Notes: generated from the letters alone by a model not told the origin. A stretch of DNA of 64,000 nt from an uncultured Clostridia bacterium (GCA_944386715.1 CALXCD010000001.1:8141-72140); one strand, 5' to 3'; numbered from the stretch's first letter, positions 11,875 through 41,458 are shown. Made by a program: numbers and translations.

Positions 11875-12468
11875 ATGAAACGAGAAACAGACAGGCAACA
11901 TTATAAAGAAAGCCGGTATAGCGAATTCGTAAGGACTCAAAATTATCCCAAAGAAAGAAAACGGATAATTAAACTCCAAAAAGAACTTAAAAAATTGGGA
12001 GATTTCCCCTCAGGAGACCCTAAAAAAATCATTACCTATACAGTTGGTTTTTTAGATTTGGTCTCTAGGTTTCAAGACGAAGGTTATTTGCAATATCAAC
12101 CAATAGAAAAGGCTGAAGCCCAGAAAACCTTCAATTCAGTAATAAAAAATAGTGGTAGGCAAGATTCTCCGAACAAATGGAATTATACCAAAAAAGGAGA
12201 AGCTATCACTATTCATAACATCCTGTTTGGCGGAATTTTAGGTTTACCCATCAAACCAGCTTCTTACTGGCTTAACCTTCCCAAAAGTAAAAAAGTAACA
12301 ATCGACTACAGGAGCAAGTTGGCAATCAATGCCAAAGACAAAAATAGCCCTATTGTTGACACAAAAACAATGTGGGAAACGCAGGCATTGGTAGAAAACA
12401 GCTTAGAAAATTTTTCTCATAATAATTCAGATATTTTAAAGCGTTGTATAAAGAGTCTACTCTCTTGA
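11875..12468 (+). CDS. Hypothetical 197-aa soluble protein, locally elevated GC
   Basis: Intact ORF with AGGAGG RBS. Uses codons (CGG, CCC, CTC, GGC) that are rare elsewhere in the window. No recognisable motif. Confidence 0.55.
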   Translation: MKRETDRQHYKESRYSEFVRTQNYPKERKRIIKLQKELKKLGDFPSGDPKKIITYTVGFLDLVSRFQDEGYLQYQPIEKAEAQKTFNSVIKNSGRQDSPNKWNYTKKGEAITIHNILFGGILGLPIKPASYWLNLPKSKKVTIDYRSKLAINAKDKNSPIVDTKTMWETQALVENSLENFSHNNSDILKRCIKSLLS

Positions 12469-16025: not shown

Positions 16026-16562
16026 CTAAAACATCCAACTAAATAAAGGATTTTCAAAAATAAGCTCTCTCATAAAACCATTTGTAAACGGAATAAACCA
16101 TAAAATAATTCCTAAAATAATAATAATAACAGCTGTCAACAAAATAGCAATCCATCCCTTTTTACTTGGTAATCCTTGAAAATGTGGTCTATTTTCAAAT
16201 ACTTCTCGAGCCAATTCTCTCACCGCTGAAAAAGTACCTATTTTATAGGTTCTATCAGCATCTACCACTTGTTTTTGCATTTCTGAAATCGGGTTCTCTT
16301 CTACTTGTCTATTTGAAAAAGATTCACGATATCTAAGCATCTCCTCTTTTTCTAACTCAGCATCATATTGTTCACGTAAAAATTCATTAGAAAGAACTTC
16401 ATATGCTTCATTTATCTCTTTCATTTTTGTTTCGCAATAAATTCTAGCTTTTCCTTCTTGTTTATCTGGATGATATTTAATCACTAAGGCACGATAAGCC
16501 TTATCTATCACTTCTTTGGAAGCAAGTCTATTGACTTCTAATATATCATAATAATTTTTCAT
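16026..16562 (-). CDS. DnaJ (J-domain) protein with C-terminal transmembrane segment
   Basis: YYDILEV...AYRALVIKYHPDK J-domain with the HPD motif. C-terminal hydrophobic stretch IAILLTAVIIIILGIILWFIPF. Confidence 0.8.
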   Translation of the reverse strand: MKNYYDILEVNRLASKEVIDKAYRALVIKYHPDKQEGKARIYCETKMKEINEAYEVLSNEFLREQYDAELEKEEMLRYRESFSNRQVEENPISEMQKQVVDADRTYKIGTFSAVRELAREVFENRPHFQGLPSKKGWIAILLTAVIIIILGIILWFIPFTNGFMRELIFENPLFSWMF

Positions 16563-16662: not shown

Positions 16663-17466
16663 TTAATAAGACTTTCTATATTTAATATAAAAACCTACTG
16701 CTATCACTACCATTATTGCAATTGCTCCTATTAAACAATTTTGTAAAGTTCCTGTTTTAGGTAATATATTATTAGATTTTCCTGAATTTACAATTCCTGA
16801 ATTTGAATAATTTACAGAACTATTTCCACCATTTGCATTTCCTGAAGGTATATTCGTATTTCCACTTGGTACATTGGTATTGGTAGAAGGCGTATTGGTA
16901 TTTCCTCCTGGTGTATTAGTATTTCCTCCTGGTGTATTGGTATTTCCTCCTGATGTATTATTACCACCAGGATTCGTTTCTTCTACTATTTCAACTGTTG
17001 TTGAAACATCTTCAACAGAAAAAGTTGTATTAGCATCAGAAAATTCATTTTTTGTAAAAGAAATTGTTTGTTCACCTAATGTTACATCTTGTTTGGCTGT
17101 TAATACTACTTTCCCAATTTCTTGGTCTTCACTAGTTGCTTCATAATCAGCTTTTGTAATAGTAATAGAATTTTCAAGCACTGTGCCTGTCCAAGCACCA
17201 GCAGAATCTGGTTGTACTTTTAAATCAAAAACATCAGCATCATATTCTAATGTTGTATTGAAAATTGCAATCCCGTCACCTGCCTCTATATCAGAAACTT
17301 GAATAGATAATGTAACACTTTCTCCTGCTTTTATCTGTGTTGTATCTGGTGTAATTGTTAAAGTACAAGTATAATCAACAGCTAAACTTTTAACTCCTAT
17401 CCCTACCATCAAAACTGCAAATAGAATTAAAATCACTTCTATTCTCTTTATTATTTCTTTTGTCAT
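16663..17466 (-). CDS. Sortase-anchored (LPKTG) cell-wall protein: signal peptide, cohesin-like N-terminal domain, GGNTNTP repeat linker
   Basis: N-terminal TM/signal sequence. The roughly 140-aa domain IKAGESVTLSIQVSDIEAGDGIAIFNTTLEYDADVFDL...ISFTKNEFSD follows the cohesin type-I pattern. C-terminal LPKTG, hydrophobic segment and KYRKSY tail. Confidence 0.6.
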   Translation of the reverse strand: MTKEIIKRIEVILILFAVLMVGIGVKSLAVDYTCTLTITPDTTQIKAGESVTLSIQVSDIEAGDGIAIFNTTLEYDADVFDLKVQPDSAGAWTGTVLENSITITKADYEATSEDQEIGKVVLTAKQDVTLGEQTISFTKNEFSDANTTFSVEDVSTTVEIVEETNPGGNNTSGGNTNTPGGNTNTPGGNTNTPSTNTNVPSGNTNIPSGNANGGNSSVNYSNSGIVNSGKSNNILPKTGTLQNCLIGAIAIMVVIAVGFYIKYRKSY

Positions 17467-17589
17467 GATTTGTCCTCCTAAACATCTAATTTAATATTCA
17501 CTATATTATATATCTCACATTTTCCGCTTTTTTTCAATAGTTTTTATTTACCAATTTTTCTATATAGCAGTACTCTAGCGTCTTTAACG

Positions 17590-17623
17590 TTTTATTACAT
17601 TTTTATTACATTTATATTACATT
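17590..17623. promoter_or_regulatory. Three tandem 11-bp direct repeats TTTTATTACAT / TTTTATTACAT / TTATATTACAT upstream of the cohesin gene
   Basis: Read directly. The 11-bp period puts them on one helix face. They lie about 125-160 nt upstream of the 16663..17466 start and abut the stop of the peptidase gene. Confidence 0.4.
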
Positions 17624-17624
17624 T

Positions 17625-19838
17625 CTAGTTGTTTGTCAATATCCAATCTGGATGTTTTTGTTTTACTACCTCTGAACGAATTGCTGCTATATGCCTTTGA
17701 ATCCATAAAACATCTGATACATCAATATTAGTATCCTGATTAATATCTGCAAACACTAAACTATCCCCCTGTAATATCCAATCTGGATGCTTTTGTTTTA
17801 CACTTTCACTCTTTACGCTTGCAATATATCTTAATAATATTAAAACATCTGCTGTATTAATCAAATTATCTTGATTGATATCTCCTACTACAACCTGGTT
17901 CTCTACAGTCACTTGAATAGGAACCACCACACTATTTCCCGCTTCATCTTTAACCATTATCTCTTCTTGAGTTGATTGCAGGTACCTTTTTATTAATCGT
18001 AAACCATTCTCTTCTAATATCCATCCATCTAATGGTTGCAATTTTTCGTTAGAAACAATAGTTACAATTCCAGTATTTTTCTCGTCATATTCTACCTGTA
18101 CTACAGGTGGTGTTTGATCAAAAAAAACGGTGATAGATTTTACCTCTGATTCATTTCCTGCCATATCTACAGCTTTTACATAAAAAGTATAACTACCCTC
18201 TTCTGGAAAAACATATCGTGTACTTGCTGTTATTTGCTTTCCAGAGCCATCTTTTTCAAAACCTTCTGACCAAAATAATTCTCCTGTATTCTCATATCTA
18301 GTATCTCCTGCAACCTGAAACCAAGTTCCTTCTTCATCTATACTCCTGTGAATGAAAAGATAATCTGCTAAACCACTTTCTCCCTCATCTTTTGCATTTA
18401 CTGTAAAAATAACCTCTCGCATCGAAGAATTCATACTATTGCTACTAATTTCCACCTCTGGTTTTTGGATATCCATCTTATTTACAACATATGTTTTTTC
18501 TCGACTATTTCCATGATTGTCTATTACTTCAATTTCATATGTTCCAGGTTTTACAATAGTATAATATGCCTTACCGTTTCTTATTTCTTGAGATTCTCCA
18601 TTTACTTTAATAGTTTGAACAGAACTATCGTCTTGCATCAGTATTGGGGTAATAATAATTTCCTGTGGTCTTTTATTCCAATCTTCATTCCATGAAGAAG
18701 ATAGACTAACAATAGATATATCTAAAGGATTTGTTACAACCACTTGTGCTTCTTCAATTCCTGTTAAATATTGATAAAAAAAGTAATCTTCATAAGAAAT
18801 ATAAAAATATCCTTCTTCTCCCCAGTCTTCCCCCCAACTATTTGTAACAATCCATGCTCCATCTTGTGAAGGTTGATATTTTCCCGTAAAATTTTCTTTA
18901 GGAAAATCATCATCCCATCCTATCACATTAACTCCATGTCCGTATTCTGGCATTTCAATTGCTGGAGACAAAAATGCAGCATTTTCTTCACTATAACATT
19001 CCAAAAAATCTTCGAAAAAAATATAAGCTTCTATTGCACCATTTTTCTGAATATAAGTCTTAATATCATTTTGAAATGCAGTTTTTTCAGCTTCAGTAGC
19101 TTTTGTGATATCAAAACTTTCAAAAGCACGAGCAACAATATTGGTTACACGAGGCGTAACACTTCCCTTTTCTAGTCCATTTTCTTGTATCATTTCTTGA
19201 ATATGTGCTATCATTTCGTCTGATTCTTGGAGATTTTCTGCAGTAACATCAGACTGCAAAGGCAAATCTTCTTCCATGATAGGTCCCGCACCATCTTGGA
19301 CATAATTAACAAAATCATAAAAATTACCTCCACTATGTAGCTCTCTTTTACCTCCATACAAATCAGATGTTAAATAATCTAAATGTAACTCTGAAAAATC
19401 ATAATATCCTGCACCATTTAATGCTAAATGCGTTTCTAAACATCGAAAAGCAGTAAATGCCCAACAAATCTCTAAACTTTTTTGATTTTTAGCAGCAATT
19501 TTTATGTCTTGTTCTAATGTATATTTCGTTGGTAATACTTGCCTTGCACGATACAGTGCAATTTTATTTTCTTGCGTATGAACTCCGTCTTTATCTATCA
19601 ACAATGGCTTTTGCAATAAATAAGGTCTTGGAATTACCTCAAATTTTTCTTTTTCTTCTTCTGAAAGACCTTGATAATATGCATAATAAGGATTATCCAC
19701 TAGTCCTAATTGTTCTTTTTCTTCCTCCTCCATTGCTTTTACAGAAATAGGGAAAAAGATGCTAACTAATATAGTCATCCACAACATAAAAAATATATAT
19801 TTAAGTTTCTTCCTATATTTCATTTTCATCTTTTCCAT
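17625..19838 (-). CDS. Secreted papain-like (C1) cysteine peptidase with Ig-like middle region and C-terminal dockerin-like module
   Basis: Signal peptide. Catalytic triad motifs CWAF, HGVNVIGWDDD and NSWGEDWGEEGYFYISY. C-terminus carries two Ca-loop segments, GDINQDNLINTADVLILLRYIA and ADINQDTNIDVSDVLWIQRHIA, each followed by KQKHPDWIL. Confidence 0.8.
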   Translation of the reverse strand: MEKMKMKYRKKLKYIFFMLWMTILVSIFFPISVKAMEEEEKEQLGLVDNPYYAYYQGLSEEEKEKFEVIPRPYLLQKPLLIDKDGVHTQENKIALYRARQVLPTKYTLEQDIKIAAKNQKSLEICWAFTAFRCLETHLALNGAGYYDFSELHLDYLTSDLYGGKRELHSGGNFYDFVNYVQDGAGPIMEEDLPLQSDVTAENLQESDEMIAHIQEMIQENGLEKGSVTPRVTNIVARAFESFDITKATEAEKTAFQNDIKTYIQKNGAIEAYIFFEDFLECYSEENAAFLSPAIEMPEYGHGVNVIGWDDDFPKENFTGKYQPSQDGAWIVTNSWGEDWGEEGYFYISYEDYFFYQYLTGIEEAQVVVTNPLDISIVSLSSSWNEDWNKRPQEIIITPILMQDDSSVQTIKVNGESQEIRNGKAYYTIVKPGTYEIEVIDNHGNSREKTYVVNKMDIQKPEVEISSNSMNSSMREVIFTVNAKDEGESGLADYLFIHRSIDEEGTWFQVAGDTRYENTGELFWSEGFEKDGSGKQITASTRYVFPEEGSYTFYVKAVDMAGNESEVKSITVFFDQTPPVVQVEYDEKNTGIVTIVSNEKLQPLDGWILEENGLRLIKRYLQSTQEEIMVKDEAGNSVVVPIQVTVENQVVVGDINQDNLINTADVLILLRYIASVKSESVKQKHPDWILQGDSLVFADINQDTNIDVSDVLWIQRHIAAIRSEVVKQKHPDWILTNN

Positions 19839-19866
19839 AATTCCTCTCTATCTATATCAATTACTA

Positions 19867-22800
19867 TTAATTTTTTATCATCCAATCCGGATGTTTTTCT
19901 TGTACTAATTCTGACTTTTCAGCCGCGATATGTCTTTGTATTTTTAAAGTATCTGTAACATCCACTTTTTGGTCTACATTGATATCTGCATTATTAAATT
20001 TATTTCCTTCTAAAATCCAATCTGGATGTTTTGTTGCAACTTCTTCATCTTTACTAGCAGCAATATGTCTTAAAACAGATAATAAATCCCCTGCATCTAT
20101 TTTTCCATCTAAGTTGATATCCCCTTTCATAGCAGATTTTCCAATATTTGTGATAAGAACCTCTACATAAGCTACATTTCCCGTAATGTCTTCCACTGTA
20201 ATATATTTGTCTATATTTTCTGCATAAGATTTCGTTAATGTTTTTTTATCTTCTGATAATTCCCATCCTTCCAATGGTTTTAACTCACGGTTAGATACAA
20301 TAGATACTACTACTATTTCTACTGGAGAAGAACCTATGGCATGATAGTTTACTTCCAATTCTAATTCTCCAATATCAATATTTACATTTGTTACATTATC
20401 TACAATATCTTTTACTGCTACTACCTCTTGTGTATTTTCTTCATATGTTCTTGTTAACGTTTTACCATCAGCAGACAATTCCCAACCTTCTATTTCTTGC
20501 AATATTTCATTTGCTGTAATAGTTACAATCGTTTGATAACCTTCTTCTTCATTATCTGGATTATAGTATTTTCTTTCATAAGTTAATTGCACTTCTGGTG
20601 ATTCTTTATCTATGTTTCCTATGATAACAGCTACATTGCTTTCATTTCCTACTAAATCTTTTAAAACAATTTCTTCCATTGTATTTTGTGTATAAGTTTT
20701 TGTTAATGTTAGTCCATCTTCTGATAATGTCCAGCCTTCTACAGTTTGCATTGGTTCATCTGCAGTAATAGTTACTAGAATATCTTGATTAGTAATTCCT
20801 TTTTCACTATATTCTACCTTTGTTACCGGAGATGTTTTATCAATATTGGAAATTTGAACTCTTACAACTACCGCATTGTTATTGGTATCTTTTACAGTTA
20901 ATAATTCTTGTGTATTCTGCTGATAAGATTTTGTTAGTGTAAATTTATCCCCTGATAAAGTCCATCCTTCCAATTCCTGTAATGTCGTATCTGATTGAAT
21001 TGTAACAACAACATCTTCTTTTGTTTTTTCGGTTATGCTATAAGTAAGTGATACTAGAAAATCTCCTATTTCAATAGGCACTGTTGTTTGATTTCCAGCT
21101 AAATCTTTTACGATAATTTCTTCTGTTGTTTTTTGCATATACAATTTTGTAAGCTCTTTTTTATCTTCTGACAATGTCCAACCTTCTAACTTTTGTAACT
21201 CTTCATCAGCAGTTAAAGTAACTTCTATTTGTTTATCGTCATCTCCTATTCTATTATAATAAACTTCTACATTTGCAGGTGTTGCGTCATAATTTTGAAT
21301 AGAAATCGCAACTTTTTGTATATTTCCAAACAAGTCTTTTACTTCAATTTCTTCTTCTGCATTTTGATTATATTCTTTTGTTAATACTAATTTATTTTCT
21401 GATAATTCCCATCCATCTACTAGTTGAATTGGTTCATTTGCAGTAAGGGTTACTAAAATATTTTCTGTCGTTGGCTCAGTTGTAGCATAATTTACTGTTA
21501 TTTCTGGTGGTACATTATCTACATTGTTTACTTCTACTTTAACAGTTGTTGTATTTCCATCTATGTCTGAAATAGTAACAGCCCATTTTACATTTTCTCT
21601 AAATTCTTTTGTTAAAGATTTTTTATCCTCTGATAAAGTCCACCCTTCTAATTCTTGCAATTCTCTATCTGCTGTTATTGTAACATCTACTTTTTCCTGA
21701 TTTACTTCTTCTGAACTATAAGTAACTTCAGCAACAAAATCCACAATAGCAATATCTACTGTTGTTTCATTCCCCACTAAATCTTTTACTATAACTTGTT
21801 CTTTTATTGGCTCACTATATTGTTTTACTAATTCTTTTTTATCTTCTGATAAAATCCATCCTTCTAAATCTTGTAATTCTTCATCTCCAATTAAAGTAAC
21901 TTGCACACCTGTTTCCTCTGTTCCTTTTTGATAAGTCGCAACTACTTTTGGAGCAATATTATCAATATTTTCTACCTTGACATTTACTTTAGATACATTT
22001 CCTACTAAGTCTGTTAAGATAACTGTTTCTTCCACGTTTTCTGAATAACTTTTTGTTAATTTCATTCCTTGTAAAGTAGTCTGCCATCCTTCTACAGATA
22101 AAACATTTTCCAATGCTCTAATGGTAACATTTACTGGTCCTTTTGTTTTATCTAACTCGCTGTAAGTAACCATTGTAATTGGCGCTATATCATCTATTTT
22201 ATAAGAATATCCCTCTTCTTTTAAATATTTTTCTGCCACTGTTCCACTTTTGCAATAAATATCAGCCCATAGCATATTTAAACCTAAACTTCCAATTTCA
22301 GTTACTGTATTAGGAATATATAATTCTTCTATAAAAAAGCAATTTTGAAAAACTTGTTTTCCAATTTTAGTAACTCCCATTGGCACTACTAATTTTGTCA
22401 AACTTGCACTCCCTACAAAAGCATAATCACCAATTTCTGTTATGCCTTGTGGAAAAGTAACTTCTTCTAATGTATAGCAATCTGCAAAAGTACATGCTTC
22501 TATCTTAGTAATTCCTTCTGGCAAAACAACCTTTTTTAATGAATTGCATCCTGAAAATACAGCTGTTCCCATGTATGTAACTTTTTCAGGAAGTTTTACC
22601 ACTTCTAATAATTGGCTCCAATAAAAAGCACCTCTTTCAATCTCTTCAACTGTAGAAATATCTACTTGTTGTAAATAATAACTATTAGAAAAAGCGTATT
22701 CTTTAATGCTTTTTACTGTCTCTGGTACAGTATAACTATTTCCTTCTTTATCACTTGGATAACATATCAGTTCTGTTATATTTTTATTAAATAAAATTCC

Positions 22801-23532
22801 ATCGATTGCTATATATTTAGAATTTGTTTCTGCAACTGTAAAATTTTCTAATGCATAACAACTTCTAAAAGCTCCATTTCCAATATAGGTCACAGTCTCT
22901 GGAACTTCTACTGTTTTTAACCATCCATTGTTAGCAAAAGCTATTTCTTTTATATTTGTTACTCCTTCTGGGATTGCATATTGTAAGTCTTCTTTCCCTT
23001 TTGGATAACAAATTAATTCTGTTTTATCTTTATTAAATAAAACCCCATTTTCACTACTAAAGAACAAATTAGATTCATCGACTTTTATTTCCTGCAAACC
23101 ATAAAGATAATGAAAAGCTTTATCACCAATATATGTTACTGTACTTGGAATCTCTATCACAGTTAAATTATCACATTGATTAAAAAAGTCACTTTCAATA
23201 CCAGTAATTCCTTCTTGTAAAATTACCTTTTTTATATCTAACATTTCTATATTAACTTCTTCTCTATTCCAAAATTCAGAAATAATAACATCACTATCTT
23301 CTGAAATATTATTGCTTCCTACATCTTTTGGATAACTACTAACCTCTCGAATTTTATCTATACCTTCCCCTATTATTCCGGTTCCTGAAATAGTCAATGT
23401 TCCTTCCTCGTCTATCGCAAATTCTATTTGGTCTATATTATTTTCTGCTTTTACTTGACCAGATAATAAAATTAGCAATACTATTGTCATAACCGTAATC
23501 ATTAATCCCCAAAAAATTTTACTATCCTTCAT
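19867..23532 (-). CDS. Secreted 1221-aa protein: BspA-type leucine-rich repeats, about 10 repeats of a roughly 90-aa Ig-like module (EGWTLSEDKK), C-terminal dockerin-like module
   Basis: Signal peptide. LRR_5-type repeats (TVTYIGxxAFxxCxxL). DNA repeats with period about 230-270 nt between 20240 and 22100. C-terminus GDINLDGKIDAGDLLSVLRHIA ... ADINVDQKVDVTDTLKIQRHIA, each followed by KHPDW. Confidence 0.75.
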   Translation of the reverse strand: MKDSKIFWGLMITVMTIVLLILLSGQVKAENNIDQIEFAIDEEGTLTISGTGIIGEGIDKIREVSSYPKDVGSNNISEDSDVIISEFWNREEVNIEMLDIKKVILQEGITGIESDFFNQCDNLTVIEIPSTVTYIGDKAFHYLYGLQEIKVDESNLFFSSENGVLFNKDKTELICYPKGKEDLQYAIPEGVTNIKEIAFANNGWLKTVEVPETVTYIGNGAFRSCYALENFTVAETNSKYIAIDGILFNKNITELICYPSDKEGNSYTVPETVKSIKEYAFSNSYYLQQVDISTVEEIERGAFYWSQLLEVVKLPEKVTYMGTAVFSGCNSLKKVVLPEGITKIEACTFADCYTLEEVTFPQGITEIGDYAFVGSASLTKLVVPMGVTKIGKQVFQNCFFIEELYIPNTVTEIGSLGLNMLWADIYCKSGTVAEKYLKEEGYSYKIDDIAPITMVTYSELDKTKGPVNVTIRALENVLSVEGWQTTLQGMKLTKSYSENVEETVILTDLVGNVSKVNVKVENIDNIAPKVVATYQKGTEETGVQVTLIGDEELQDLEGWILSEDKKELVKQYSEPIKEQVIVKDLVGNETTVDIAIVDFVAEVTYSSEEVNQEKVDVTITADRELQELEGWTLSEDKKSLTKEFRENVKWAVTISDIDGNTTTVKVEVNNVDNVPPEITVNYATTEPTTENILVTLTANEPIQLVDGWELSENKLVLTKEYNQNAEEEIEVKDLFGNIQKVAISIQNYDATPANVEVYYNRIGDDDKQIEVTLTADEELQKLEGWTLSEDKKELTKLYMQKTTEEIIVKDLAGNQTTVPIEIGDFLVSLTYSITEKTKEDVVVTIQSDTTLQELEGWTLSGDKFTLTKSYQQNTQELLTVKDTNNNAVVVRVQISNIDKTSPVTKVEYSEKGITNQDILVTITADEPMQTVEGWTLSEDGLTLTKTYTQNTMEEIVLKDLVGNESNVAVIIGNIDKESPEVQLTYERKYYNPDNEEEGYQTIVTITANEILQEIEGWELSADGKTLTRTYEENTQEVVAVKDIVDNVTNVNIDIGELELEVNYHAIGSSPVEIVVVSIVSNRELKPLEGWELSEDKKTLTKSYAENIDKYITVEDITGNVAYVEVLITNIGKSAMKGDINLDGKIDAGDLLSVLRHIAASKDEEVATKHPDWILEGNKFNNADINVDQKVDVTDTLKIQRHIAAEKSELVQEKHPDWMIKN

Positions 23533-23751: not shown

Positions 23752-23790
23752 CAAAAAAAGAGACGCAATCTATACGTCCCTAACATTTAT
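23752..23790 (-). terminator. Probable ftsH terminator (GAGACG/CGTCCC hairpin followed by T-run on the minus strand)
   Basis: Imperfect GC hairpin followed by TCTCTTTTTTTG on the reverse strand just past the ftsH stop. Confidence 0.4.
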
Positions 23791-23794
23791 ATTA

Positions 23795-25648
23795 TTATTC
23801 TTCTCCAAATATAGCTTCAAATTCATCAGCTTCAATTTTCTCTTTTTCTAAAAGAATGGCTGCTACTGCATGTAGTTTTTCTACATGGTCTGATAGAATT
23901 TGTTTTGCTCTATTATAACCTGTATCAACTATTCTCTTTGTTTCTTCATCAATAATAGCAGCCGTTTCTTCTGAATATTCTTTTCCTTGTGCAAGGTCTC
24001 TTCCTAAAAATACTTGTTCTTGATTAGAACCTAACATTAAAGCTCCAATTCTTTCACTCATACCATATTTTGTAACCATACTTCTTGCAATACCAGTTGC
24101 TCTTTCGATATCATTACTTGCTCCTGTCGAAATATCATTTAAGATAAGTGCTTCTGCCACTCTTCCACCTAGTAAAGATACAATATTTTCTTCCATTTCT
24201 GTCTTAGACATAAAGGATTTATCTTCTGTAGGACGATACATAGTATATCCTCCTGCCATTCCTCTAGGCACAATAGAAATTTGATGTACAGGGTCTTGTG
24301 TTTCTAAGTAATGACTAACAACTGCATGACCTGCTTCATGATAAGCTACTAGTTTATTTTCTTTTTCACTTCTTACTTTTGTTTTCTTTTCAGGTCCCAT
24401 CGTAACTTTTATCATAGCATCTTCTATTTCTTTCATTCCAATTTCACTTAAATTTCTTCTTGCTGCTAATAAAGCTGCCTCATTTAAAACATTCTCTAAA
24501 TCTGCTCCTGCAAATCCTGATGTGTTCTTCGCAATTACTTTTAAATCTACATCATCTGCTAATCTTTTCTTTCTACTATGCACTTCTAATATTTGCTCTC
24601 TTGCTTTTACATCAGGTGCTCCTACTACAATTTGTCTATCAAATCTTCCGGCACGAAGCAATGCTTTATCTAATACATCTGGTCTATTAGTTGCAGCTAA
24701 TACAATAACACCTTCATTTTCAGCAAATCCATCCATTTCTACTAATAATTGATTTAATGTTTGTTCTCTTTCATCATGTCCTCCACCAAGTCCTGCACCC
24801 CTTTGACGTCCCACAGCATCAATTTCGTCAATAAATACAATACATGGTGCATTTTTCTTTGCTTGGTCAAATAAGTCTCTTACACGAGAAGCTCCTACAC
24901 CAACAAACATCTCCACAAAATCAGAACCACTAATAATAAAGAATGGTACTCCTGCTTCTCCAGCAACAGCCTTAGCTAACAATGTTTTACCAGTACCTGG
25001 TTGACCAACTAATAAAACACCTTTTGGAATTCTTGCTCCCATATCTGTAAATTTTTTTGGATTTTTCAAAAATTGAACAATCTCTTCTAATTCTTCTTTT
25101 TCTTCATCTACACCTGCTACATCATCAAAAGATATTTTGTTTCTATCTGCTGGTGTCATCATTCTAGCTTTACTTTTTCCAAATGACATTGTTTTACTTC
25201 CTGGATTTCCTCCATTAGAACCACTCATCATAAAGAACCAGAAAATAAAGAAAATAATTAATAATCCAAATGGTGTTAATAAACTAATAACTGTTACTAA
25301 TATAGATTGAGACTTTTCTTCTAAAGTAAATGCTCCTTCTTTTAAGAATTCCTCTGTATATGTCATAAAGCTTCCCATATCTGGAATATTAACTTCTTTT
25401 TTCACTTTATCATCTTTTAATTGAACTGTTGCGGTCTTTCCATCTGCTTCTATTTGAATACTTTCTACCTTCCCACTATTAATATCTGCAATTAATTCAG
25501 AATATTTTAACTTAGAATCACTATTTTCTACAATAGATGATAATACAACAATAAAAATGACTCCAATAATTAACCACATCGCTAATGTTTTGATTCCATT
25601 TTTCAAAATTAATTCCTCCTTTAGTCTTAACCCCTTTATTTTTTCCAA
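23795..25648 (-). CDS. ftsH: ATP-dependent zinc metalloprotease FtsH
   Basis: Two N-terminal TM segments. AAA motifs [18 protein letters not shown] and [11 protein letters not shown]. Protease motif HEAGHAV. Confidence 0.95.
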
Positions 25649-26839: not shown

Positions 26840-28175
26840 CTAATCATCAAATCTTTTTTCTAGATTCACAAATTTTGTATAGCTTCCTAACCATAATAAT
26901 TCTATTGTTCCTGTAGAACCACCTCTATGTTTTGCAAGTATTACTTCTGCAATGTCCTTTTTTTCACTATCTTGATTATAATAATCATCACGATATAAAA
27001 ACATAACAATATCAGCATCTTGCTCGATAGCTCCAGATTCTCTTAAATCTGAAAGCATAGGTCTATGGTCTGGTCTTTGTTCTACTGCTCTTGATAATTG
27101 TGATAAAGCAATTACTGGCACATTCAATTCTTTTGCCAAAATTTTCAAAGACCTACTAATTTCAGAAATTTCTTGTTCACGGCTACCGTTTCTCTTATTG
27201 CTTCCTTGTACTAATTGCAAATAGTCAATAACCACCATCCCAATATTTTTTTCTAATTTTAATTTTCTACATTTTGCTCTAATCTCCATCACAGAAATTC
27301 CCGGTGTATCGTCAATATAAATTTCCGCATCAGACAATGGTCCGGATAGCTCCAGCAAGTTTAGTCCAATCCTCTTCCTCTAATTTTCCAGTTCTTACTT
27401 TATTACTATCTACCATTGCTTCACTACACAAAATTCTATTTACCATTTGTTCTTTTGACATCTCTAGACTAAAAATAGCAACTGGTACTTTTGCTTTTAC
27501 AGCCGCATTTGCTGCAATATTAAGAGCAAAAGCAGATTTTCCCATCGCAGGTCTTGCAGCAATTAAAATTAATTCTGAACCATGAAAACCTGCCGTTTTA
27601 TAATCTAACTGTACAAAACCTGATGGAACACCTGTAATATGTTGTTTTCGATTATATAACTCTTCTAATTGTGTAAAACTATCTACTAAAATATCTTTAA
27701 TGGGTGTATAACCTTTTTGATTTTTATTTTGCATCATATTAAAAATTTTTTTCTCTGCCCCTTCCATGATGTCTTCTACATCCTCTGTTGGGTCATATCC
27801 TAATTCAATAATTTCATTAGCAGTTTTGATTAAATTCCTTAATGCTGCTTTTTCTTCCACAATTTTAATATATTTCATAGCATTTGCAGTAGTAGGAACT
27901 TTATCTGGCAGCTCTGCCAAATACTCTAATCCTCCTACCTGTTCAAATTTTCCCATGGTTTCTAATTCTGATTTAACAGTAATAATATCAATAGGTTCTG
28001 CTCTGTTATATAGATTCAAAATTGCTTCATATATTGCTTTGTTATCCTCACGATAAAAATCTTCTTGTTTTAATACTTCTATGGCTGAAATCACAGCATC
28101 TCTATCTGTTAACATACTACCAATTACTGCTTGTTCAGCTTCTAAATCATGAGGTGGTACTTTTCCTAATTCCAT
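26840..28175 (-). CDS. dnaB: Replicative DNA helicase DnaB, split into two overlapping ORFs by a 1-nt frameshift at about 27330-27358
   Basis: Upstream ORF has the N-terminal domain and Walker [17 protein letters not shown] and ends ...[10 protein letters not shown]. Downstream ORF begins [20 protein letters not shown] and has Walker B and the RecA-like C-terminus. An extra C in ATCCGGA reconciles the frames. Confidence 0.8.
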
Positions 28176-30984: not shown

Positions 30985-33900
30985 TTAATATTCCATTGTA
31001 TAATATTTCCCGTCCGCTGATTTATTAAAAATAACTCTATCAGAATTAATTGTTATAACTGGACGTATACCATCTCCCTCTGGAAAAATAGTAGTAACTC
31101 CTGTTCCACTAAAAATTTCCCCATTTGCTTCTACATAATCAACTGCATCAGGATCCCAATCACTAATTAAAGGAGTTGCAAGAAGATAACGTGAAGAATC
31201 ATAAACATAATTAGACATGCCCTCTACATTTTTTAATTGATCCAACCTATATATTCCAGTTTCATCTTCAAATGTTTGAATTGTGTCTGTCGAAGATAAA
31301 TCTATGTTATATCTTGCTTTATTGATATTTGTTAAAGTTACCGTATTAAGCTTTACATTTCCGTTTTTAAATAAACTATTTCCCTTTAGCATAAACGGAT
31401 AATAATAGTCATAAACGTTACTTCCATTAGTAATAGAAATATAAGATCCTTTATTGTAACGCTCTTTTCCTTGTATTTCTCCATATTCAAATTCGATATC
31501 TCCCAAATTAGAATAAAGTCCAGCAGATACTGCTAAGCTATTATCACCAGCATAAGAAAACCAATCAGATGGCCATTCAAGTGCCTCTTCGAGTTCCTGT
31601 TGACCTAGTGCGTCTGTTACCCACCAATCATTATTTAGTTGAGAACCAAGCATATCAACCGCTACTTTTGCAGGTATCCCTGTACTAATTAATTTTACAT
31701 TAGAATAAGTTCCATCTTGATTATCTGTATAAGATAATAATCGCCATCCATTAGTAGTAGAATATTTATATTCTGGATAGTATACATCTGTATAAGCAAC
31801 ATCATATTTTACAAAATCTGCTGTTTCAGGTGGTTCTACATCATTAATTGTAATGGTATTACTTCCTGATACATCACTATAATTTCCATTTGTAGAATGA
31901 ATGTACCAATATACCGTAGTAGTTCCTGCTGAACTTCTAGAAGGCTTTGAAGTAGTTCCACTTGTTGAATAATTACTTGATGTTAGAGTACTTGATGTAC
32001 TATAATAAATATTACATCCATTTCTTGGTTCATTTACTACTAAAGTAATCGTATGACTATTTCCATCATAATCTCCAATATAATCTCCTGATGTTTTTTG
32101 AATTGCTTTTTTATTAATCGTAAATGCCTTTGTTGCATTTGTTAATGTATAGTTAGAAGTCTTTTTTCTTCCTCCTGTTACACTTTCTATACTTGCTGTT
32201 GATGTATGAGTTCCTGCACTAACTTCTGTTGTTCTTGTTATATTTAATGTTTCTCTACTTATTCCACTATCTGCACTTGCTGTCGGTGCTTGTGGTGAAC
32301 CATTATAAGTAAAGGTTGTCGTGCTTCCCCATGTTACTGATACACTCTTCTTATTTATTGTCCATGAAATACTTTTTGCTCCTGTTGTTCCATCACTCCA
32401 TGCATAATTTGATGTTGGTGTTGCTTTTGCTGTATATGTTCCTGCATCTATTGCTGATTGCGTTCCACTCCATGTTACTTGACTTCCTGTTACTCCTGTT
32501 TGTGTTGCACCATTATATGTTTTGTTTGCTGCCGATGCTGTTGCTGTTTTTGCTCTTGCTATTGTAAATTGCTTTGTATTTCCTGTTAATGTATAGTTTG
32601 ATGCTTTTCCTCTTCCTCCACTTACACTTGATATACTTGCTGTTGATGTATGTGTTCCTGCACCAATTTCTGTTGTTCTTGTAATATTAAGTGTTTCTCC
32701 ATAAATACCACTTGACGCACTTGCTGTTGGTCCTTGTGCTTTTCCATTGTATGTAAATGTTGTACTTCCCCATGTTACTGATACACTCTTTGGACTAATT
32801 CTCCAACTTAAATTTATGCTTGATGTGCTTCCATCTGACCATTGATAGTTGCCACTATCTTTTAGTGTTACAGTTGCTGTATAATTTCCTGCATCAGTTC
32901 CTGTATTTCCACTAATATTCATTGTACTTGAATTATATCCACTTACATTTAATGATTGTGTATTTCCATTATAAGTATAAGTTCCAGAAGCAGTTGGTTT
33001 TGCTACATTTATTTTAGTTACAGTAGCACTTCCATTATTAGTACTATCTGTAATATCCTTAAATGTTGCATTTGCATAGTTAGTTTTCTTAGCTGTTACC
33101 ACTACATAAATGTATTTTCCTACTAATCCATTACCTATCGTATAAGTTTTTCCTGTTGCCCCACTAATTGGTGTTCCTCCACTTGTTGAATTATATGTAT
33201 TAGAGTACCATTGATAACTTAATGTTGCATCTCCTGGATTTACATTTGTCTGAGCTGTTAAGGTTGAACCATATTGGTTGGTTCCTGTAATTGTTACACT
33301 TCCTGTAATTGTTGCATTTGTAATGTTAAATGCTTTTGTTGTATTGGTTAAAGTATAGTTAGAAGCTTTTCCTCTTCCTCCTGTTACACTTTCTATACTT
33401 GCTGTTGAGGTATAACTTCCTACATTTGTTCCTGTTGTTCTTGTTAAGTTAATTGTCTCTCCACTTACTCCACTTGTTGCTACTACAGTTGGTGCTTGCG
33501 CTTTTCCATTATATACGAAACTTGTTGTCTCTCCCCATGTTACTGAAATTTGTTTTGGATTGATTTTCCATCCTAATGATACTCCTGATGTAGTACCATC
33601 TGACCATTGATAATTGCTACTATCTTTTAATGTTACAGTAGCTGTATAATTTCCAGCATCTGTTCCTGTATTTCCACTTACATTCATCGTACTTGAATTA
33701 TATCCACTTAAACTTAATGTTTGGCTTGCACCATTATAAGTATAACTTCCAGAAACAGTTGGTTTTGCTACATTTATTTTAGTTACAGTAGCACTTCCAT
33801 TATTAGTACTATCTGTAATATCACTAAATGTCGCATTTGTATAGTTAGCTTTCTTAGCTGTTACTACTACATAAATATATTTTCCTACTAGTCCACTACC

Positions 33901-36900
33901 TATTTGATACGTTTTTCCTGTTGCTCCATTAATTGGTGTTCCTCCACTTGTTGAATTACTTGTATTAGAATACCATTGATAACTTAAAGTTGCATCTCCT
34001 GGATTGATACTAGTTTCTGCTGTTAATGTTGAACCATATTGGTTTGTTCCTGTTATCTTTACACTTCCCGTAATAGTTGCATTTGTAATAGTAAATGCTT
34101 TTGTTGTATTGGTTAATGTATAGTTAGATGCTTTTCCTCTTCCTCCTGTTACACTTGTTATACTTGCTATTGAGGTATAACTTCCTACATTTGTTCCTGT
34201 TGTTCTTGTTAAGTTAATGGTTTCTCCACTTACTCCACTTGTTGCTACTACAGTTGGTGCTTGTTCTTTTCCGTTATATACGAAACTTGTTGTCTCTCCC
34301 CATGTTACTGCTACTGATTTTGCATTAATTTTCCAACTTAAAGATACATTTCCTGTACTTCCATCTGACCATTGATAATTGCTACTATCTTTTAAGCTTA
34401 CGGTTGCTGTATAATTTCCTGCATCTGTTCCTGTATTTCCACTCACATTCATCGTACTTGAATTATATCCACTTAAACTTAATGTTTGAGTTGCTCCATT
34501 GTAAGTATAATTTCCTGTTGCAGTTGGTTTATTTAAGTTTATCTTAGTTACAGTAGCACTTCCGTTATTCGTACCATCTGTAATATCACTAAATGTTGCA
34601 TTTGCATAATTAGTTTTCTTAGCTGTTACCACTACATAAATATATTTTCCTACTAGTCCACTACCTATTTGATACGTTTTTCCTGTTGCTCCATTAATTG
34701 GTGTTCCTCCACTTGTTGAATTACTTGTATTAGAATACCATTGATAACTTAAAGTTGCATCTCCTGGATTGACACTAGTTTGAGCTGTTAATGTTGAACC
34801 ATATCGGTTTGTTCCTGTTATTTTAACACTTCCTGTAATCGTTGCATTTGTAATATTAAATGCTTTTGTTGCATTTGTTAATGTATAGTTAGAAGTTTTT
34901 CCTCTTCCTCCTGTTACATTCGTAATACTTGCTGTAGATGTATAACTTCCTACATCAATCTCTGTTGTTCTTGTAATATTAATGGTTTCTCCACTAACAC
35001 CACTTTCCGCACTTACTGTTGGTGCTTGTTCTTTTCCATTATAAACAAAACTTGTTGTATCTCCCCATATTACAGCCACTTCTTTTGCATTAATCTTCCA
35101 GCTTAAAGTCACATTAGATGTAGTTCCATCTGACCATTGATAGTTGCCACTATCTTTTAGTGTTACAGTTGCTGTATAATTTCCTGCATCAGTTCCTGTA
35201 TTTCCACTTACTGTCATATTTCCTGCATCAAATCCATTCAAAGTTAATGTTTGATTAGTTCCATTATAAGTATAATTTCCTGTTGCTGTTGGCTTTTGTA
35301 TACTTATTTTCATAACAGTTGCACTTCCGTTATTAGTTGGGTCTGTAATGTCACTAAATGTTACTTCATTATAATTGTCTTTTTTAGCTGTTACTACTAC
35401 ATAAATATATTTTCCTACTAATCCATCCCCTATTGTATAATCCTTTCTGTTTGCTCCATCAATTGGTGTTCCTCCATTTGTTGAATTAGTTGTATTAGAA
35501 TACCATTGATAAGTTAAAGTAGCATCTTCTGGATTTACATTAGTTTGGGCTGTCAAGGTTGAACCATATTGGTTGGTTCCTGTAATTGTTACACTTCCTG
35601 TAATTGTTGCATTTGTAATATTAAATGCTTTTGTTGTATTAGTTAGTATATAGTTAGCTGTCTTTTCTCTTCCTCCTGTTACACTTTCTAACTTAGCAGT
35701 TGAAGTATAACTTCCTACTTCTGTCTCTGTCGTTCTTGTCATATTAAGAGTTTCGCCATTAACACCACTTTCAGCACTTACTGTTGGTGCTTGTTCTTTT
35801 CCATTATAGACAAAACTTGTTGTTGTTCCCCATACTACTGCTACTTCTTTTGGATTAATTCTCCAGCTCAAAGTCACATTTGATGTAGTTCCATCTGACC
35901 ATTGATAGTTTTCACTATCTTTCAATGTTACAATTGCTGTGTAATCTCCTGCATCTATTCCAGTATTTCCACTAACATTCATTTTTTCTGCATCAAGTCC
36001 CTTTAAAGTTAATGTCTGAGTAGTTCCGTTATAAGTATAACTTCCTTCTGCTGTTGGTTTTTGTACATTTATCTTCATAACAGTTGCACTTCCGTTATTG
36101 GTTGGGTCTGTAATGTCACTAAAGCTTGCATTTCCATAGTTTGGTTTTTTCGCTGTTACTACTACATAAATATATTTTCCTGCTAATCCGCTTCCTACAG
36201 TATAATCTTTTTTATTCGCTCCATCAATTGGTGTTCCTCCACTAGCAACATTATTGCTACTAGAATACCATTGATAAGTTAAAGTTGCATCACTTGGATT
36301 TACTGTTGTTTCTGCTGTTAAAGTAGAACCGTATTGGTTTGTTCCTGTTATTTTCACACTTCCTGTGATAACTTGATTTGCTATACTAAATTCTTTTGTA
36401 GTTCCAATTAAAGTATAGTTAGAAACTTTTTCTCTTCCTCCTGTTACACTTTCCAATTTAGCAGTTGATGTGTAATTACCTACATTAGTTTCTGTCGTTC
36501 TAGTAATATTAAGTGTTTCACCTTCTACACCACTTTCGGCACTTGCTGTTGGTGCTTGTGGGTGTCCATTATATACAAAACTTGTTGTTTCTCCCCATAT
36601 TACTGGTATTTGTTTTGGATTTATTTTCCAACTTAGAGTCACATTAGCTATAGTTCCATCTGACCATTGATAGTTACTACTATCTTTTAATGTTACAGTT
36701 GCTGTATAATCTCCTGCATCAATTCCAGTATCTCCACTTATATTCATAACATTTGCATCATAACCATTTAAAGTTATTTTTTGATTTGTACCATTATAAC
36801 TATAAGTTCCAGAAACTGTTGGTTTTTCCAAGTTAGCTTTCATAACAGTAGCACTTTCGTTAGTATCACTATCTGTAATATCACTAAAGCTTACTTCACC

Positions 36901-39900
36901 ATAATTTGTCTTTTTCGCTGTTACCACTACATAAATGTATTTTCCTATTAAGCCATCTCCTACTGTATAATCTTTTTTATTCGCTCCATCAATTGGTGTT
37001 CCTCCTGTTGTACTTTCTGTTGTATTAGAATACCATTGATAGGTTAAAGTAGCATCTTCTGGGTTTACTACCGTTTGAGCTGTTAAAGTTGAACCGTATT
37101 GATTTGTTCCTATTATTGTTACATTTCCTACTATTTTATCATTTGTAATAGTAAATTCTTTTGTATTATTTGTTAAGGTATAATTAGAAACTTTTCCTCT
37201 TCCTCCTGTTACACTCTCAATACTTGCTACTGATGTATGTGTTCCTACATCTTTTGCCGTTGTTCTTACTACATTAATAACTTCTCCATTTACACCACTA
37301 GAAGCCTTTACTGTTGGAGCTTGTTCTTTTCCGTTATACACAAAGCTTGTGGTTATTCCCCATACAGCCTCTATACTTTTTGTATTAATTTTCCAGTCTA
37401 AAGTTAGCTCTGTCACGGTTCCATCTGACCATTGATAATTCTCACTATCTTTTAAGGATATTATTGCAGTATAATCTCCTGCATCTATTCCTGTATTTCC
37501 ACTTACATTCATAGTTGCTTGATCGAATTTATTTAAAGTTGCCGTTTGGTTTGTTCCGTTATATGTATAAGTTCCTGTAAGTGTTGGTTTTTCAACACTT
37601 ACTTTTATTACAGTTGCACTTTCGTTATTAGTTGGGTCTGTAATATCACTAAAGGTTGCCTCTCCATAATTAGGTTTTGTAGCTGTCACTTGTACATAAA
37701 TGTATTTTCCAATCAATCCCTTTCCTACTACATAATCTTTTTCGTTTGCCCCTTCAATTGGTGTTCCTTCTGTTGTGCTTTCTGTTGTATTAAAGTACCA
37801 TTGATAGGTTAAAGTAGCATCTTCTGGACTTACTACAGTTTGAGCTGTTAAAGTTGAACCATATTGATTTTTTCCTGTTATTTTAACATTTCCTGCTATT
37901 TTATCATTTGTAATAGTAAATTCTTTTGTTGTATTTGTTAAGGTATAGTTAGTTGTCTTTCCTCTTCCTCCTGTTACACTTTCAAGACTTGCTGTTGATG
38001 TATAGTTTCCTACAGTAATTGCTGTTGTTCTTGTAATATTAAGGTTTTCTCCATCTACTCCACTTTCTGCAGTTGCTGTTGGTGCTTGTTCTTTTCCATT
38101 ATAAACAAAGTTTGTCACATCTCCCCAAATTACCGCTATCGTTTTTGGATTAATTTTCCATGTAATTGTTTTTGCTTCTGTTGTTCCATCTTCCCATGTA
38201 TAATTTTCTTCTGGTGTTGCCGTTGCTGTATAAGTTCCTGCATCTATTGCTTCTATTGTTCCTGTTAATATAACATGGTTCCCATTAATACCTTTTTGAT
38301 TTGCACCATTATATATTTTTTCTTCCTCTGCTACTGCTGTTGCTGTTAGCGATTTTTGTACAGTTATTGTTTTGGTGATACTTGCCTCTTTTACTGTTTC
38401 TGTCCTTGCCATAATAGCTGTGATTTCTGAAGCTCCACCCACTGCTACTGGTGTTAATGTTCCTGTACTAGCATCTACTGTCAAATAGGTTGGATTAGAA
38501 GATTGGTAAGTAATTGCTCCTGCTGTTCCTCCTTCTCCACTCACCTTTACTGTTGCTTTTTTACTTGTATCACCATAGTATACAGTATCTGGTGTTGTAT
38601 TTTCCCATTCTAGTGTTCTAGTATATTTTTGTACGGTTATTGTTACTTCCTTACTTGTCTCTTTATAGTTATCGTTTCCTGCATCTGTTACTGTAACTAC
38701 TATTGTTTTATCTCCATCATCATTTATTGAGTTAGTTCCTGCTGTTAATGTATTTCCTTCTATTTTACTTCCTTGTGTTGTTTGATTTTTAATGCTATAA
38801 GTTACATTTCCTTTTGCATTACTTACTAATGTTGATAAATCTACTTTTTCTCCTACTTTAACTGTTTTACTTGTTACTGTCATTGGACTTTCTAATTTTG
38901 TTACTTCAAAACTATTGCTTACTTTTACTTCTTCTGCTCTATTTCCTGCTATATCTGTTACTCTTGTCCATAAGTAATAAGTTCCAGCTTTACAATCTTC
39001 CTTACTTACTGTTTCTCCATTTTCAAATGTCTTCCACTCTTCTTCTTTTGGTTGTTCGTCTTTACTTGTTGACCATGCATATTCTAATTTGTTTAATCCT
39101 GAACCTCCTTCATCTGCTGCTGTTAAAGTTGTTTTTATTGTTGCCTCTCCACTATCTGGCATTACCGTATTTCCCCCATTTGGAGTCAATGTTACAGTTG
39201 GTTTTATCTTATCAATATTACTTATTGTTATTTCTTTCGTTATTTCTTTACCTGATTCATCTTCTACTGTTACTGTTATAGTTTGATTATTTGTTTTTAT
39301 GATGACTTCTGTTTCATCTTTTATTTCGTAATCTATTCCTTCTGTTCCTGTTACTGTTATAGTTTTATCTCCTGTTATTCTATCATCATATTCTATTTTT
39401 ACTGTTACATCTTGGTTTGTCCAGTCTTTTGGATTTTGTGTTAATATGATTAAATTCTCTGTACTTGGTTTTACACTAAATTCTTTACTTACCTCAATTG
39501 CTTCATTTCCTGCTACATCTGTTATTCTTGTCCATAAATAATAACTTCCTTCTTCACAATCTTTTTTACTTACTGTTTGTTCATTTGTTAATGGTTCCCA
39601 TTCTTGTTCTGTTGGTCTTGTTGTATTTGAATTACTCCATGCATATTGTCGTGTATTTAATCCTGAACCTCCTTCATCTTTTGCTGTTACTTTCACTTCT
39701 ATTGTTCCATCTTCTGCTGATTGTTCAGTTGATGTATTAATTAATGTTTTTCCACAGTTTGTTCCCATAGAACATCCATAACCATTTATATCATAGTAAG
39801 TCGAATAACTTGCATGACTATCACATGTTACTGTTCCCCATTCTTGCCCACACTCATCACATTTCATCCAAACATTTTTAGTGGCTGGATTATTACAACC

Positions 39901-40596: not shown

Positions 40597-40912
40597 TTTA
40601 CATTCTCTCCTATAAATATTTTTATGCTTTAACAATTCTAATTTAACAAAGCAAAATAAATATTTCAATGCTTTAATTTGGTAAAACCTATCTCCCTTTA
40701 TCAAAGCACTTACGGATTTCGTATTTCGTTTATCTTATTAGAAAAAATTAATTTTATTTTACATTTTTGTAATATTGCTGTAATTTATGCACAAAAAAGC
40801 CTTAAATATTCGATAAATGTCTTTTTTGCAAAAATGTAAAAAAATTTTTCTTGATTTTGCGAGTTTCTTTTGATATATTAATTTTAATTTATAGAGAGGA
40901 AAAATGTTATAA

Positions 40913-41458
40913 AAAAACAAGAAAATCATTATATCCGTAAGGATTGCTGTTATTGTTTTAATAGGATTTTTCATTTTTTTACTAATAAACAACCATAAAA
41001 ACAATACTTCTATAGACCAAAATATTTCCAATAATACTTCAACTGAAATAAATGAGATATCAACAGAGTCTGAATCTACGGTACCAACATTTACCCTAGA
41101 AAGTACACCAGATAATCCTATTGAAATGGACGGGGTAGAAGCCACTACTATCAAAATAAGTAATAATGCAGGAGATGTAAAAGTAGATACTATATTAAAA
41201 AACAATTCTGATGAAGATATACATGGGTTTTTTATCGAAATAAATTTACTAGATAAAGATAACAATATTATTACAACCCTTTCTGAAAATTCCGAAAAAA
41301 CTATAAAAGCTCATAGCGAACATGCCCTAACAAACTATATTACAGCATTAGATAACGCAGAAAATATAACAAATGCACAAATTGTAACAATGGAAAAAAA
41401 CAGTATTAAAAACATGTTAGAAAATAGGTTTCAAGATATAGAAATGATAAAAGAATAA
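40913..41458 (+). CDS. Membrane-anchored 180-aa protein with N-terminal signal-anchor; canonical ATG at 40904 is followed by an in-frame TAA at codon 3
   Basis: Strong RBS AGAGAGGA then ATG TTA TAA. The open frame resumes KNKKIIISVRIAVIVLIGFFIFLLINNHK... and runs to 41458. The first internal ATG is at 41126 (ORF-track entry). The antisense ORF 40759..41265 is low-complexity. Confidence 0.45.
   Translation, partial: KNKKIIISVRIAVIVLIGFFIFLLINNHKNNTSIDQNISNNTSTEINEISTESESTVPTFTLESTPDNPIEMDGVEATTIKISNNAGDVKVDTILKNNSDEDIHGFFIEINLLDKDNNIITTLSENSEKTIKAHSEHALTNYITALDNAENITNAQIVTMEKNSIKNMLENRFQDIEMIKE

Follow-up and report, generated by a model that had tools for sequence, protein, structure and literature searches.

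Cohesin-dockerin pairs are known above all for holding cellulosomes and amylosomes together, and their non-cellulosomal uses have been catalogued, rarely explained. We analyzed a 64,000-nucleotide stretch of DNA from an uncultured Clostridia bacterium (GCA_944386715.1 CALXCD010000001.1:8141-72140; hereafter the window), in which three consecutive minus-strand genes encode a predicted single-cohesin protein with an LPKTG sorting signal (the anchor), a papain-family cysteine peptidase (cargo 1) and a leucine-rich repeat (LRR) protein (cargo 2), with both cargo proteins ending in a dockerin. This locus is likely to be a minimal non-cellulosomal surface display system that is built on a sortase-anchored cohesin. 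Among the described systems, Ruminococcus flavefaciens has 28 LRR-dockerin and 16 peptidase-dockerin proteins, and its ScaE consists of a single cohesin and an LPXTG signal (PMC2930009). The window thus shares with it both the order of a single cohesin followed by a sorting signal and the occurrence of LRR- and peptidase-dockerins in one organism. However, ScaE acts within a large cellulosome, where it binds scaffoldin or CttA X-dockerins, whereas here the cargo would dock directly, the locus holds no scaffoldin or carbohydrate-active enzyme (CAZyme), and the dockerin units are 45 residues long. A single type I surface cohesin that takes enzyme dockerins directly, without a scaffoldin, is found in OlpA/OlpC of Clostridium thermocellum (3ul4, 4dh2), and the 4dh2 dockerin is the best phmmer match of the window dockerin. 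Unlike our locus, OlpA/OlpC are attached by S-layer homology domains rather than by sortase, belong to a cellulolytic system and pair with dockerins of canonical length.

Non-cellulosomal use in a low-GC Clostridium is exemplified by modules of the large glycosidases of C. perfringens (NagJ, 2w1n/2o4e; NanJ, 2vo8; NagH FIVAR-dockerin, 2ozn), and the modelled cohesin of the anchor appears structurally nearest to these toxin-complex cohesins. In C. perfringens, however, cohesins and dockerins lie inside secreted enzymes and serve toxin-complex assembly with no dedicated LPXTG anchor, and its dockerin (2jnk/2ozn) matches the profile of the dockerin subtype found here weakly (E = 0.045) and is without the KHPDW extension described below. 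Adjacent genes for one cohesin and one or a few dockerins, together with membrane- or wall-associated single-cohesin proteins, also occur in the minimal ClcC/ClcD pair of Cellulosilyticum lentocellum, which enhances cellulase activity (PMC13487519), and in 'scaffoldin-containing' non-cellulolytic microbes, e.g., Lachnoclostridium sp. MSJ-17 (PMC11557425). Compared with ClcC/ClcD, the window has a predicted protease and adhesin as cargo, a sortase-substrate anchor and a different dockerin subtype. The peptidase further resembles Cwp84 of Clostridioides difficile in being a papain-family protease of a Clostridium-like organism that we propose to be wall-associated. Cwp84 is attached to the surface by CWB2 wall-binding repeats, in place of which a dockerin held in a sortase-anchored cohesin would serve here.

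The initial annotation had placed three consecutive genes in this region, and intact open reading frames (ORFs) of 267, 737 and 1221 amino acids (aa) lie at exactly the coordinates it claimed. The features of the locus are as follows:

16663-17466, minus strand: anchor gene, 267 aa, intact ORF; signal peptide, single cohesin, linker rich in N, T, P and G, and LPKTG sorting signal
16972-17379, minus strand: predicted cohesin domain of the anchor (aa ~30-165), a type-I-like beta sandwich
16765-16971, minus strand: low-complexity GGNTNTP-type linker of the anchor (aa 166-234), presumed to be a wall-spanning spacer
16666-16764, minus strand: sorting signal of the anchor, made up of LPKTG (16750-16764, aa 235-239), a hydrophobic segment and a KYRKSY tail
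17625-19838, minus strand: cargo 1, 737 aa, intact ORF; secreted Cwp84-like papain-family (C1) cysteine peptidase with a C-terminal dockerin
18789-19493, minus strand: Peptidase_C1 catalytic domain of cargo 1 (aa 116-350), from Pfam and the alignment to Cwp84
17910-18068, minus strand: single ~70-aa beta repeat of cargo 1 (aa 591-643), directly before the dockerin, detected by phmmer with a repeat of the LRR protein (E = 5.7e-15)
17628-17894, minus strand: dockerin of cargo 1 (aa 649-737), composed of two 45-residue units; in each, a Ca loop is followed by a 15-residue helix, a short helix and a KHPDW turn
19867-23532, minus strand: cargo 2, 1221 aa, intact ORF; secreted LRR protein of the BspA type, in which nine beta repeats precede a C-terminal dockerin
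20152-22167, minus strand: nine tandem ~70-aa beta repeats of cargo 2 (aa 456-1127), located after the LRRs and before the dockerin (found by self-search, E from 3e-8 to 7e-47)
19870-20133, minus strand: dockerin of cargo 2 (aa 1134-1221), of the same KHPDW subtype as in cargo 1
23759-23781, minus strand: terminator-like hairpin that follows ftsH and lies upstream of the gene trio

We first consider the anchor, for which 16 close homologues (52-99% identity) with a like architecture were found. Four of these orthologues, at 66-85% identity, match Pfam Cohesin (PF00963; best E = 3.2e-8). A profile of the anchor's cohesin domain (A2), searched at E <= 1e-3 among 1.84 billion proteins, recovered 480 cluster representatives, and PF00963 was matched by 106 of the 143 representatives scanned (best E = 4.9e-23). 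The same profile reaches classical scaffoldins, including the seven-cohesin protein P0061 (E = 1.8e-23), which carries both Pfam Cohesin (1.2e-56) and a canonical dockerin. The AlphaFold (AF2) model of the domain is all-beta, with no helix by DSSP (predicted local distance difference test score, pLDDT, 89.4; predicted template modelling score 0.82), and all of its top 30 Foldseek matches in the PDB are cohesins (best 6kgd_A, E = 3.5e-8; TM score up to 0.75). Its fit is closer to cohesins of type I and of C. perfringens than to those of types II and III, most of which score lower, with ScaE (2zf9) at 8.8, and it has neither the crowning alpha-helix nor beta-flap insertions. The type-I-like label is fair given the absence of a helix and the closer fit to type I and C. 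perfringens cohesins, and on this modelling the globular domain of the anchor is predicted to be a divergent type-I-like cohesin. The earlier proposal of a type I cohesin with ScaE-like anchoring therefore stands in part: the cohesin assignment is borne out by orthologues, family and model and the type-I-like fold by the model, whereas the likeness to ScaE is one of architecture only. We also considered a functional role of the conserved Cys34 of the cohesin, as a thioester or disulfide, and rejected it, since Cys is present in only 85 of 142 relatives and is mostly replaced by Tyr, Phe or Leu in the others, which fits a buried hydrophobic position.

The sorting signal of the anchor is tripartite (LPKTG-TLQNCLIGAIAIMVVIAVGFYI-KYRKSY), and its LPKTG is nearly invariant in the orthologues. 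Across 142 A2-family representatives (median 252 aa), 88 have an LPXTG-like motif within the last 50 residues and a further 17 end in a hydrophobic stretch without such a motif; the layout of signal peptide, single cohesin, linker and sorting signal is common to most of them. Given these 88 and 17 proteins, small single-cohesin proteins predicted to be tethered to the wall or membrane are evidently a common and under-annotated architecture. The GGNTNTP-type linker is polymorphic in length, with 260-aa and 267-aa forms of the anchor in one 90%-identity cluster and quite different linker lengths among the orthologues.

Turning to the dockerins, both cargo C-termini exceed the curated cut-off of Pfam Dockerin_1 (PF00404, 22.9 bits), with 30.6 bits for cargo 1 (aa 652-717) and 30.0 bits for cargo 2 (aa 1136-1202). 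In a six-frame scan of the 64 kb, the dockerin-type Ca loop was detected exactly four times, always at the C-termini of these two proteins and with an intact D-x-N-x-D-x(6)-D pattern, each time with KHPDW ~20 residues downstream, and neither the Ca-loop nor the KHPDW motif occurs elsewhere in the window. The cargo dockerins contain no Cys. When a profile of the KHPDW subtype (A3, 89 positions) was compared with the PDB, it matched solved type I dockerins at 9e-8 to 1e-5 (2mte, 9e-8; 2ccl, 1e-7), and alignment with the C. thermocellum Xyn10B dockerin (2ccl, 1ohz) revealed an 11-residue insertion after helix 1 (seevkekhpdW) and a matching tail after helix 3, with no solved dockerin covering positions beyond ~79 of the 89. 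From this insertion and tail result two 45-residue units in a module of 88-89 aa, instead of the two ~22-residue segments and short linker of a canonical dockerin (~60-70 aa).

The extension is conserved beyond this genome. Among 15 sequences from different contigs, little or no variation is seen at its Trp, and the segment-2 His before the Trp is nearly invariant, giving the subtype consensus D-x-N-x-[DN]-x-x-[IV]-D-x-x-D-x-L-x-[IL]-Q-R-[HY]-I-A-A-x-x-S-x-x-[IV]-x-x-K-H-P-[DE]-W. Word-indexed homologue searches with the dockerin returned short metagenomic fragments only (59-122 aa), which served motif conservation and not the census of cargo, and a full-text literature search for KHPDW/KHPEW-type motif strings gave irrelevant string matches only. 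The AF2 model of the last beta repeat and the dockerin (dockerin pLDDT 90-98) has in each unit the Ca loop and the 15-residue helix, with ESVKQK or EVVKQK as the short helix and a helical turn at P-D-W. The initial annotation had expected Dockerin_1 matches and a non-canonical KHPDW extension on every dockerin segment; the former score above threshold, and the latter is present on all four segments and absent from all solved dockerins. Judged by its sequence, the KHPDW dockerin is a distinct subtype built of two 45-residue units. The modelled extension could act as a stabilizing clasp or form part of the interface. With its two units almost identical in architecture, the dockerin could bind in a dual mode, by analogy with type I dockerins.

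Cargo 1 is a predicted papain-like C1 peptidase, as had been proposed, with a Peptidase_C1 domain (PF00112, E = 3.2e-15; 57.2 bits, cut-off 20.7) upstream of its two-segment dockerin. The catalytic Cys, His and Asn are found in ICWAF, GHGVNVIGW and NSWG, respectively, motifs that align with those of the C. difficile surface protease Cwp84, the nearest solved structure (4ci7, E = 1.2e-25). The protein further carries an N-terminal signal peptide, weak immunoglobulin (Ig)-like matches (Big_3_2, OmpL47-type) and one beta repeat that is all-beta in the AF2 model (pLDDT ~82-93). Cargo 2, the exact sequence of which is present in public assemblies, has a signal peptide and four stretches of LRR_5 (PF13306, E = 2.2e-56), which identify it as a BspA-type LRR protein. 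Its ~70-aa beta repeat matches no Pfam family above threshold, is all-beta by AF2 with an Ig-like domain as the best Foldseek match (E = 0.11), and also precedes the KHPDW dockerin subtype in unrelated metagenomic fragments and proteins. The initial description of a BspA-LRR protein with about ten Ig-like repeats and a dockerin thus holds for the LRRs and the dockerin, whereas the repeats number nine and their Ig-like nature is weakly supported by the Foldseek match.

Deletion variants of both cargo kinds were also observed. One contig (L023:804-2738) encodes an LRR protein of 644 aa with the second dockerin unit only, and in two peptidase fragments (P0019, P0020) the two 45-residue dockerin units are collapsed into one. 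These variants suggest recombination or assembly collapse between internal repeats.

We then compared the locus across related genomes. The trio is intact in contigs of the same species (L008-L015), and in related species the anchor gene remains in the interval between ftsH and a DnaJ-domain gene while the adjoining cargo changes: LRR protein and C1 peptidase in the window and L022, C1 peptidase only in L016, LRR protein only in L001 and L018, and no cargo between ftsH and the anchor in L004-L007 and L020. A third kind of cargo, a dockerin protein with a metallo-beta-lactamase (MBL) fold and Big_2 domains, is encoded upstream of tilS in L016 and L018 and is not in the window; in some relatives its gene sits two genes further upstream. 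The pairing also recurs outside this synteny. Three contigs found in a metagenome scan with the dockerin profile (L025-L027) have no other gene in common with the window, and each encodes a 705-aa protein with the same beta repeats and a KHPDW/KHPEW dockerin. A 280-aa protein is encoded 77 nucleotides further on; it has a signal peptide, a cohesin that exceeds the Pfam cut-off of 24.1 bits (34.6 bits) and an MPKTG anchor. Moreover, P0154 and P0088 are natural fusions of an A2-family cohesin with the KHPDW dockerin subtype (240-aa adaptor-like protein). Other cargo with N-terminal dockerins of the subtype comprises Listeria-Bacteroides-repeat/FN3 and Big_2 proteins, with no CAZyme among them, in what is a small census, the homologue search having given mostly fragments.

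Within the block, the intergenic gaps measure 28 and 158 nucleotides, and a terminator scan detected no minus-strand terminator-like site in either of them; the sole such site apart from the hairpin after ftsH lies at 19144-19160, within the C1 ORF. These gap sizes and the lack of terminators in the gaps are consistent with co-transcription of the three genes. That the genes act as one display system, as initially proposed, gains comparative support from the conserved adjacency with variable cargo, the non-syntenic recurrence and the cohesin-dockerin fusions, and on this sequence evidence the three genes probably form one system.

The MBL-fold/Big_2 protein is 767-942 aa long in related species and strains, and its gene reaches into the compared loci at L016:1-2349, L018:1-869 and L009/L010:1-650. 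In L016, the in-locus part of its N-terminal dockerin contains KHPDW; for the other loci, the dockerin assignment comes from precomputed Dockerin_1 matches.

In the mechanism that we propose, N-terminal signal peptides would export all three proteins, and a sortase encoded outside the window would cut the LPKTG motif of the 267-aa protein and link it covalently to peptidoglycan. The GGNTNTP-type linker would then act as a spacer that keeps the single type-I-like cohesin off the wall. The Cwp84-like peptidase and the BspA-type LRR adhesin may each dock on this cohesin, non-covalently and in a Ca-dependent manner, via their extended dockerins. Since both would share or compete for one single-site anchor, the cell surface would carry a mixture of protease and adhesin.

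Several results weigh against this mechanism. The LPKTG protein of the window itself gives no match to Pfam Cohesin, even at E <= 10, so that its assignment as a cohesin is based on evidence from the family and from structure; the initial expectation of a Pfam match for its N-terminal domain failed for the protein itself but held for some of its orthologues and most of the family representatives scanned, and the fold matches cohesins. When the LPKTG protein and its profiles were searched against the PDB by sequence, only insignificant cohesin matches were obtained (best 3l8q, E = 0.038), which made the fold search necessary. Foldseek with the model of the beta repeat and dockerin found nothing significant in the PDB and no solved dockerin (best E = 0.11). 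For a small helical module such a search carries no information, and the likeness of the extended dockerin to canonical ones therefore rests on sequence. The sorting signal scores 13.8 bits with the LPXTG hidden Markov model TIGR01167, just under the cut-off of 15.9 bits, and no sortase gene was detected among the window ORFs scanned. Finally, the anchor genes of L004-L007 and L020 have no adjoining dockerin gene, and the dockerin loci L024, L028 and L029 have no cohesin within 8 kb; with one partner lacking in these loci, cohesin/dockerin adjacency is frequent and not obligatory.

Both kinds of partnerless locus would suit an arrangement in which the modules are real but serve other receptors, with the dockerins using a cohesin encoded elsewhere or by another species and the anchor binding other dockerin proteins (the MBL-fold protein or adaptors like P0154). 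The breadth of the cohesin family points the same way, given that one genome may hold several cohesins when the 480 representatives include multi-cohesin and cohesin-dockerin adaptor proteins. We nevertheless consider this arrangement unlikely, because the same dockerin subtype adjoins the same cohesin family in syntenic and non-syntenic loci alike, the window has one cohesin and these two dockerins only, and the genes are tightly spaced with no terminator-like site between them. It is more improbable still that the beta sandwich of the LPKTG protein merely resembles cohesins, the protein being a generic surface adhesin, Ig-like or pilin-like, and that the dockerin-like C-termini serve Ca-dependent stabilization or bind wall polymers or host ligands. 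Such an adhesin would agree with the missing direct Pfam match, and for many non-cellulosomal dockerin-like modules no partner is known to have been demonstrated; against it stand the Pfam Cohesin matches of orthologues at 66-85% identity, the reach of the A2 profile to classical scaffoldins and the cohesin-dockerin fusions within the A2 family. Display of the two neighboring dockerin proteins on the sortase-anchored cohesin is therefore the explanation that we favor.

On this explanation, the locus is a clean minimal case of one sortase-anchored cohesin beside interchangeable protease and LRR adhesin genes in gut-associated Clostridia. The swappable cargo suggests plug-and-play remodelling of the surface, for adhesion or for the processing of surface or host proteins. 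More tentatively, the KHP[DE]W dockerins and the LPXTG- or membrane-anchored single cohesins might constitute an unclassified cohesin-dockerin type that is widespread in uncultured low-GC gut Clostridia and used to display, in a swappable manner, not CAZymes but adhesins, proteases and MBL-fold enzymes, in which the extra helix and H-P-x-W turn join or gate the interface and the specificity is orthogonal to types I-III. Although we regard this broader proposal as rather doubtful at present, such an orthogonal specificity would offer a new pair for the protein-assembly toolbox. There is no solved structure of a dockerin made of 45-residue units, and profile-based censuses would miss some cohesins, given that the cohesin of the window is itself invisible to Pfam.

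The three-gene block is flanked by ftsH (23795-25648) and the DnaJ-domain gene (16026-16562), in a segment of ~30% GC that also holds rpoB/rpoC, fusA, dnaB, tilS and spoIIE. That the host sporulates, as inferred in the initial annotation, is supported by the presence of SpoIIE in the window and of a Spo0E-like gene at the syntenic position in contigs of the same species. At the level of the locus, no CAZyme and no multi-cohesin protein was found in the window or the related loci examined, and no source gives a name to the proteins of the three-gene locus. A promoter scan was at chance level (42 sites against 42.9 expected) and was not used.

Further observations concern other genes of the window. 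Five further ORFs (168-692 aa) are without a significant Pfam family (52236-54314, 4953-6389, 59085-60326 and 40759-41265 on the minus strand; 11875-12468 on the plus strand). A 164-aa ORF (45413-45907, minus strand), likewise without a Pfam match, is located between rpoB (45919-49689) and rpoC (41687-45208), an unusual place for an extra gene. A much larger ORF of 3239 aa (30985-40704, minus strand, TTG start) has an N-terminal hydrophobic segment, a high content of Thr, Gly, Ser and Asn, and about nine repeats of ~290 aa (YTYNGT...NYQWSDGT...VTGGRGK...YQWY), in a region of unusual AT skew (-0.30 to -0.39). It matches no Pfam family at E <= 1e-5 (a match of 0.0026 only, at lax settings), is without a dockerin or LPXTG motif, and is probably a giant surface protein. 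Lastly, dnaB (26840-28175, minus strand) is present as two overlapping ORFs (281 and 172 aa) with a frameshift near 27345, being split by one extra base (GCTATC-C-GGACC) relative to the intact 448-aa gene of the related contig L001. The identical sequence in two independent metagenome assemblies (L008, L011) makes a random sequencing error unlikely and suggests a possible programmed frameshift or a shared artefact.

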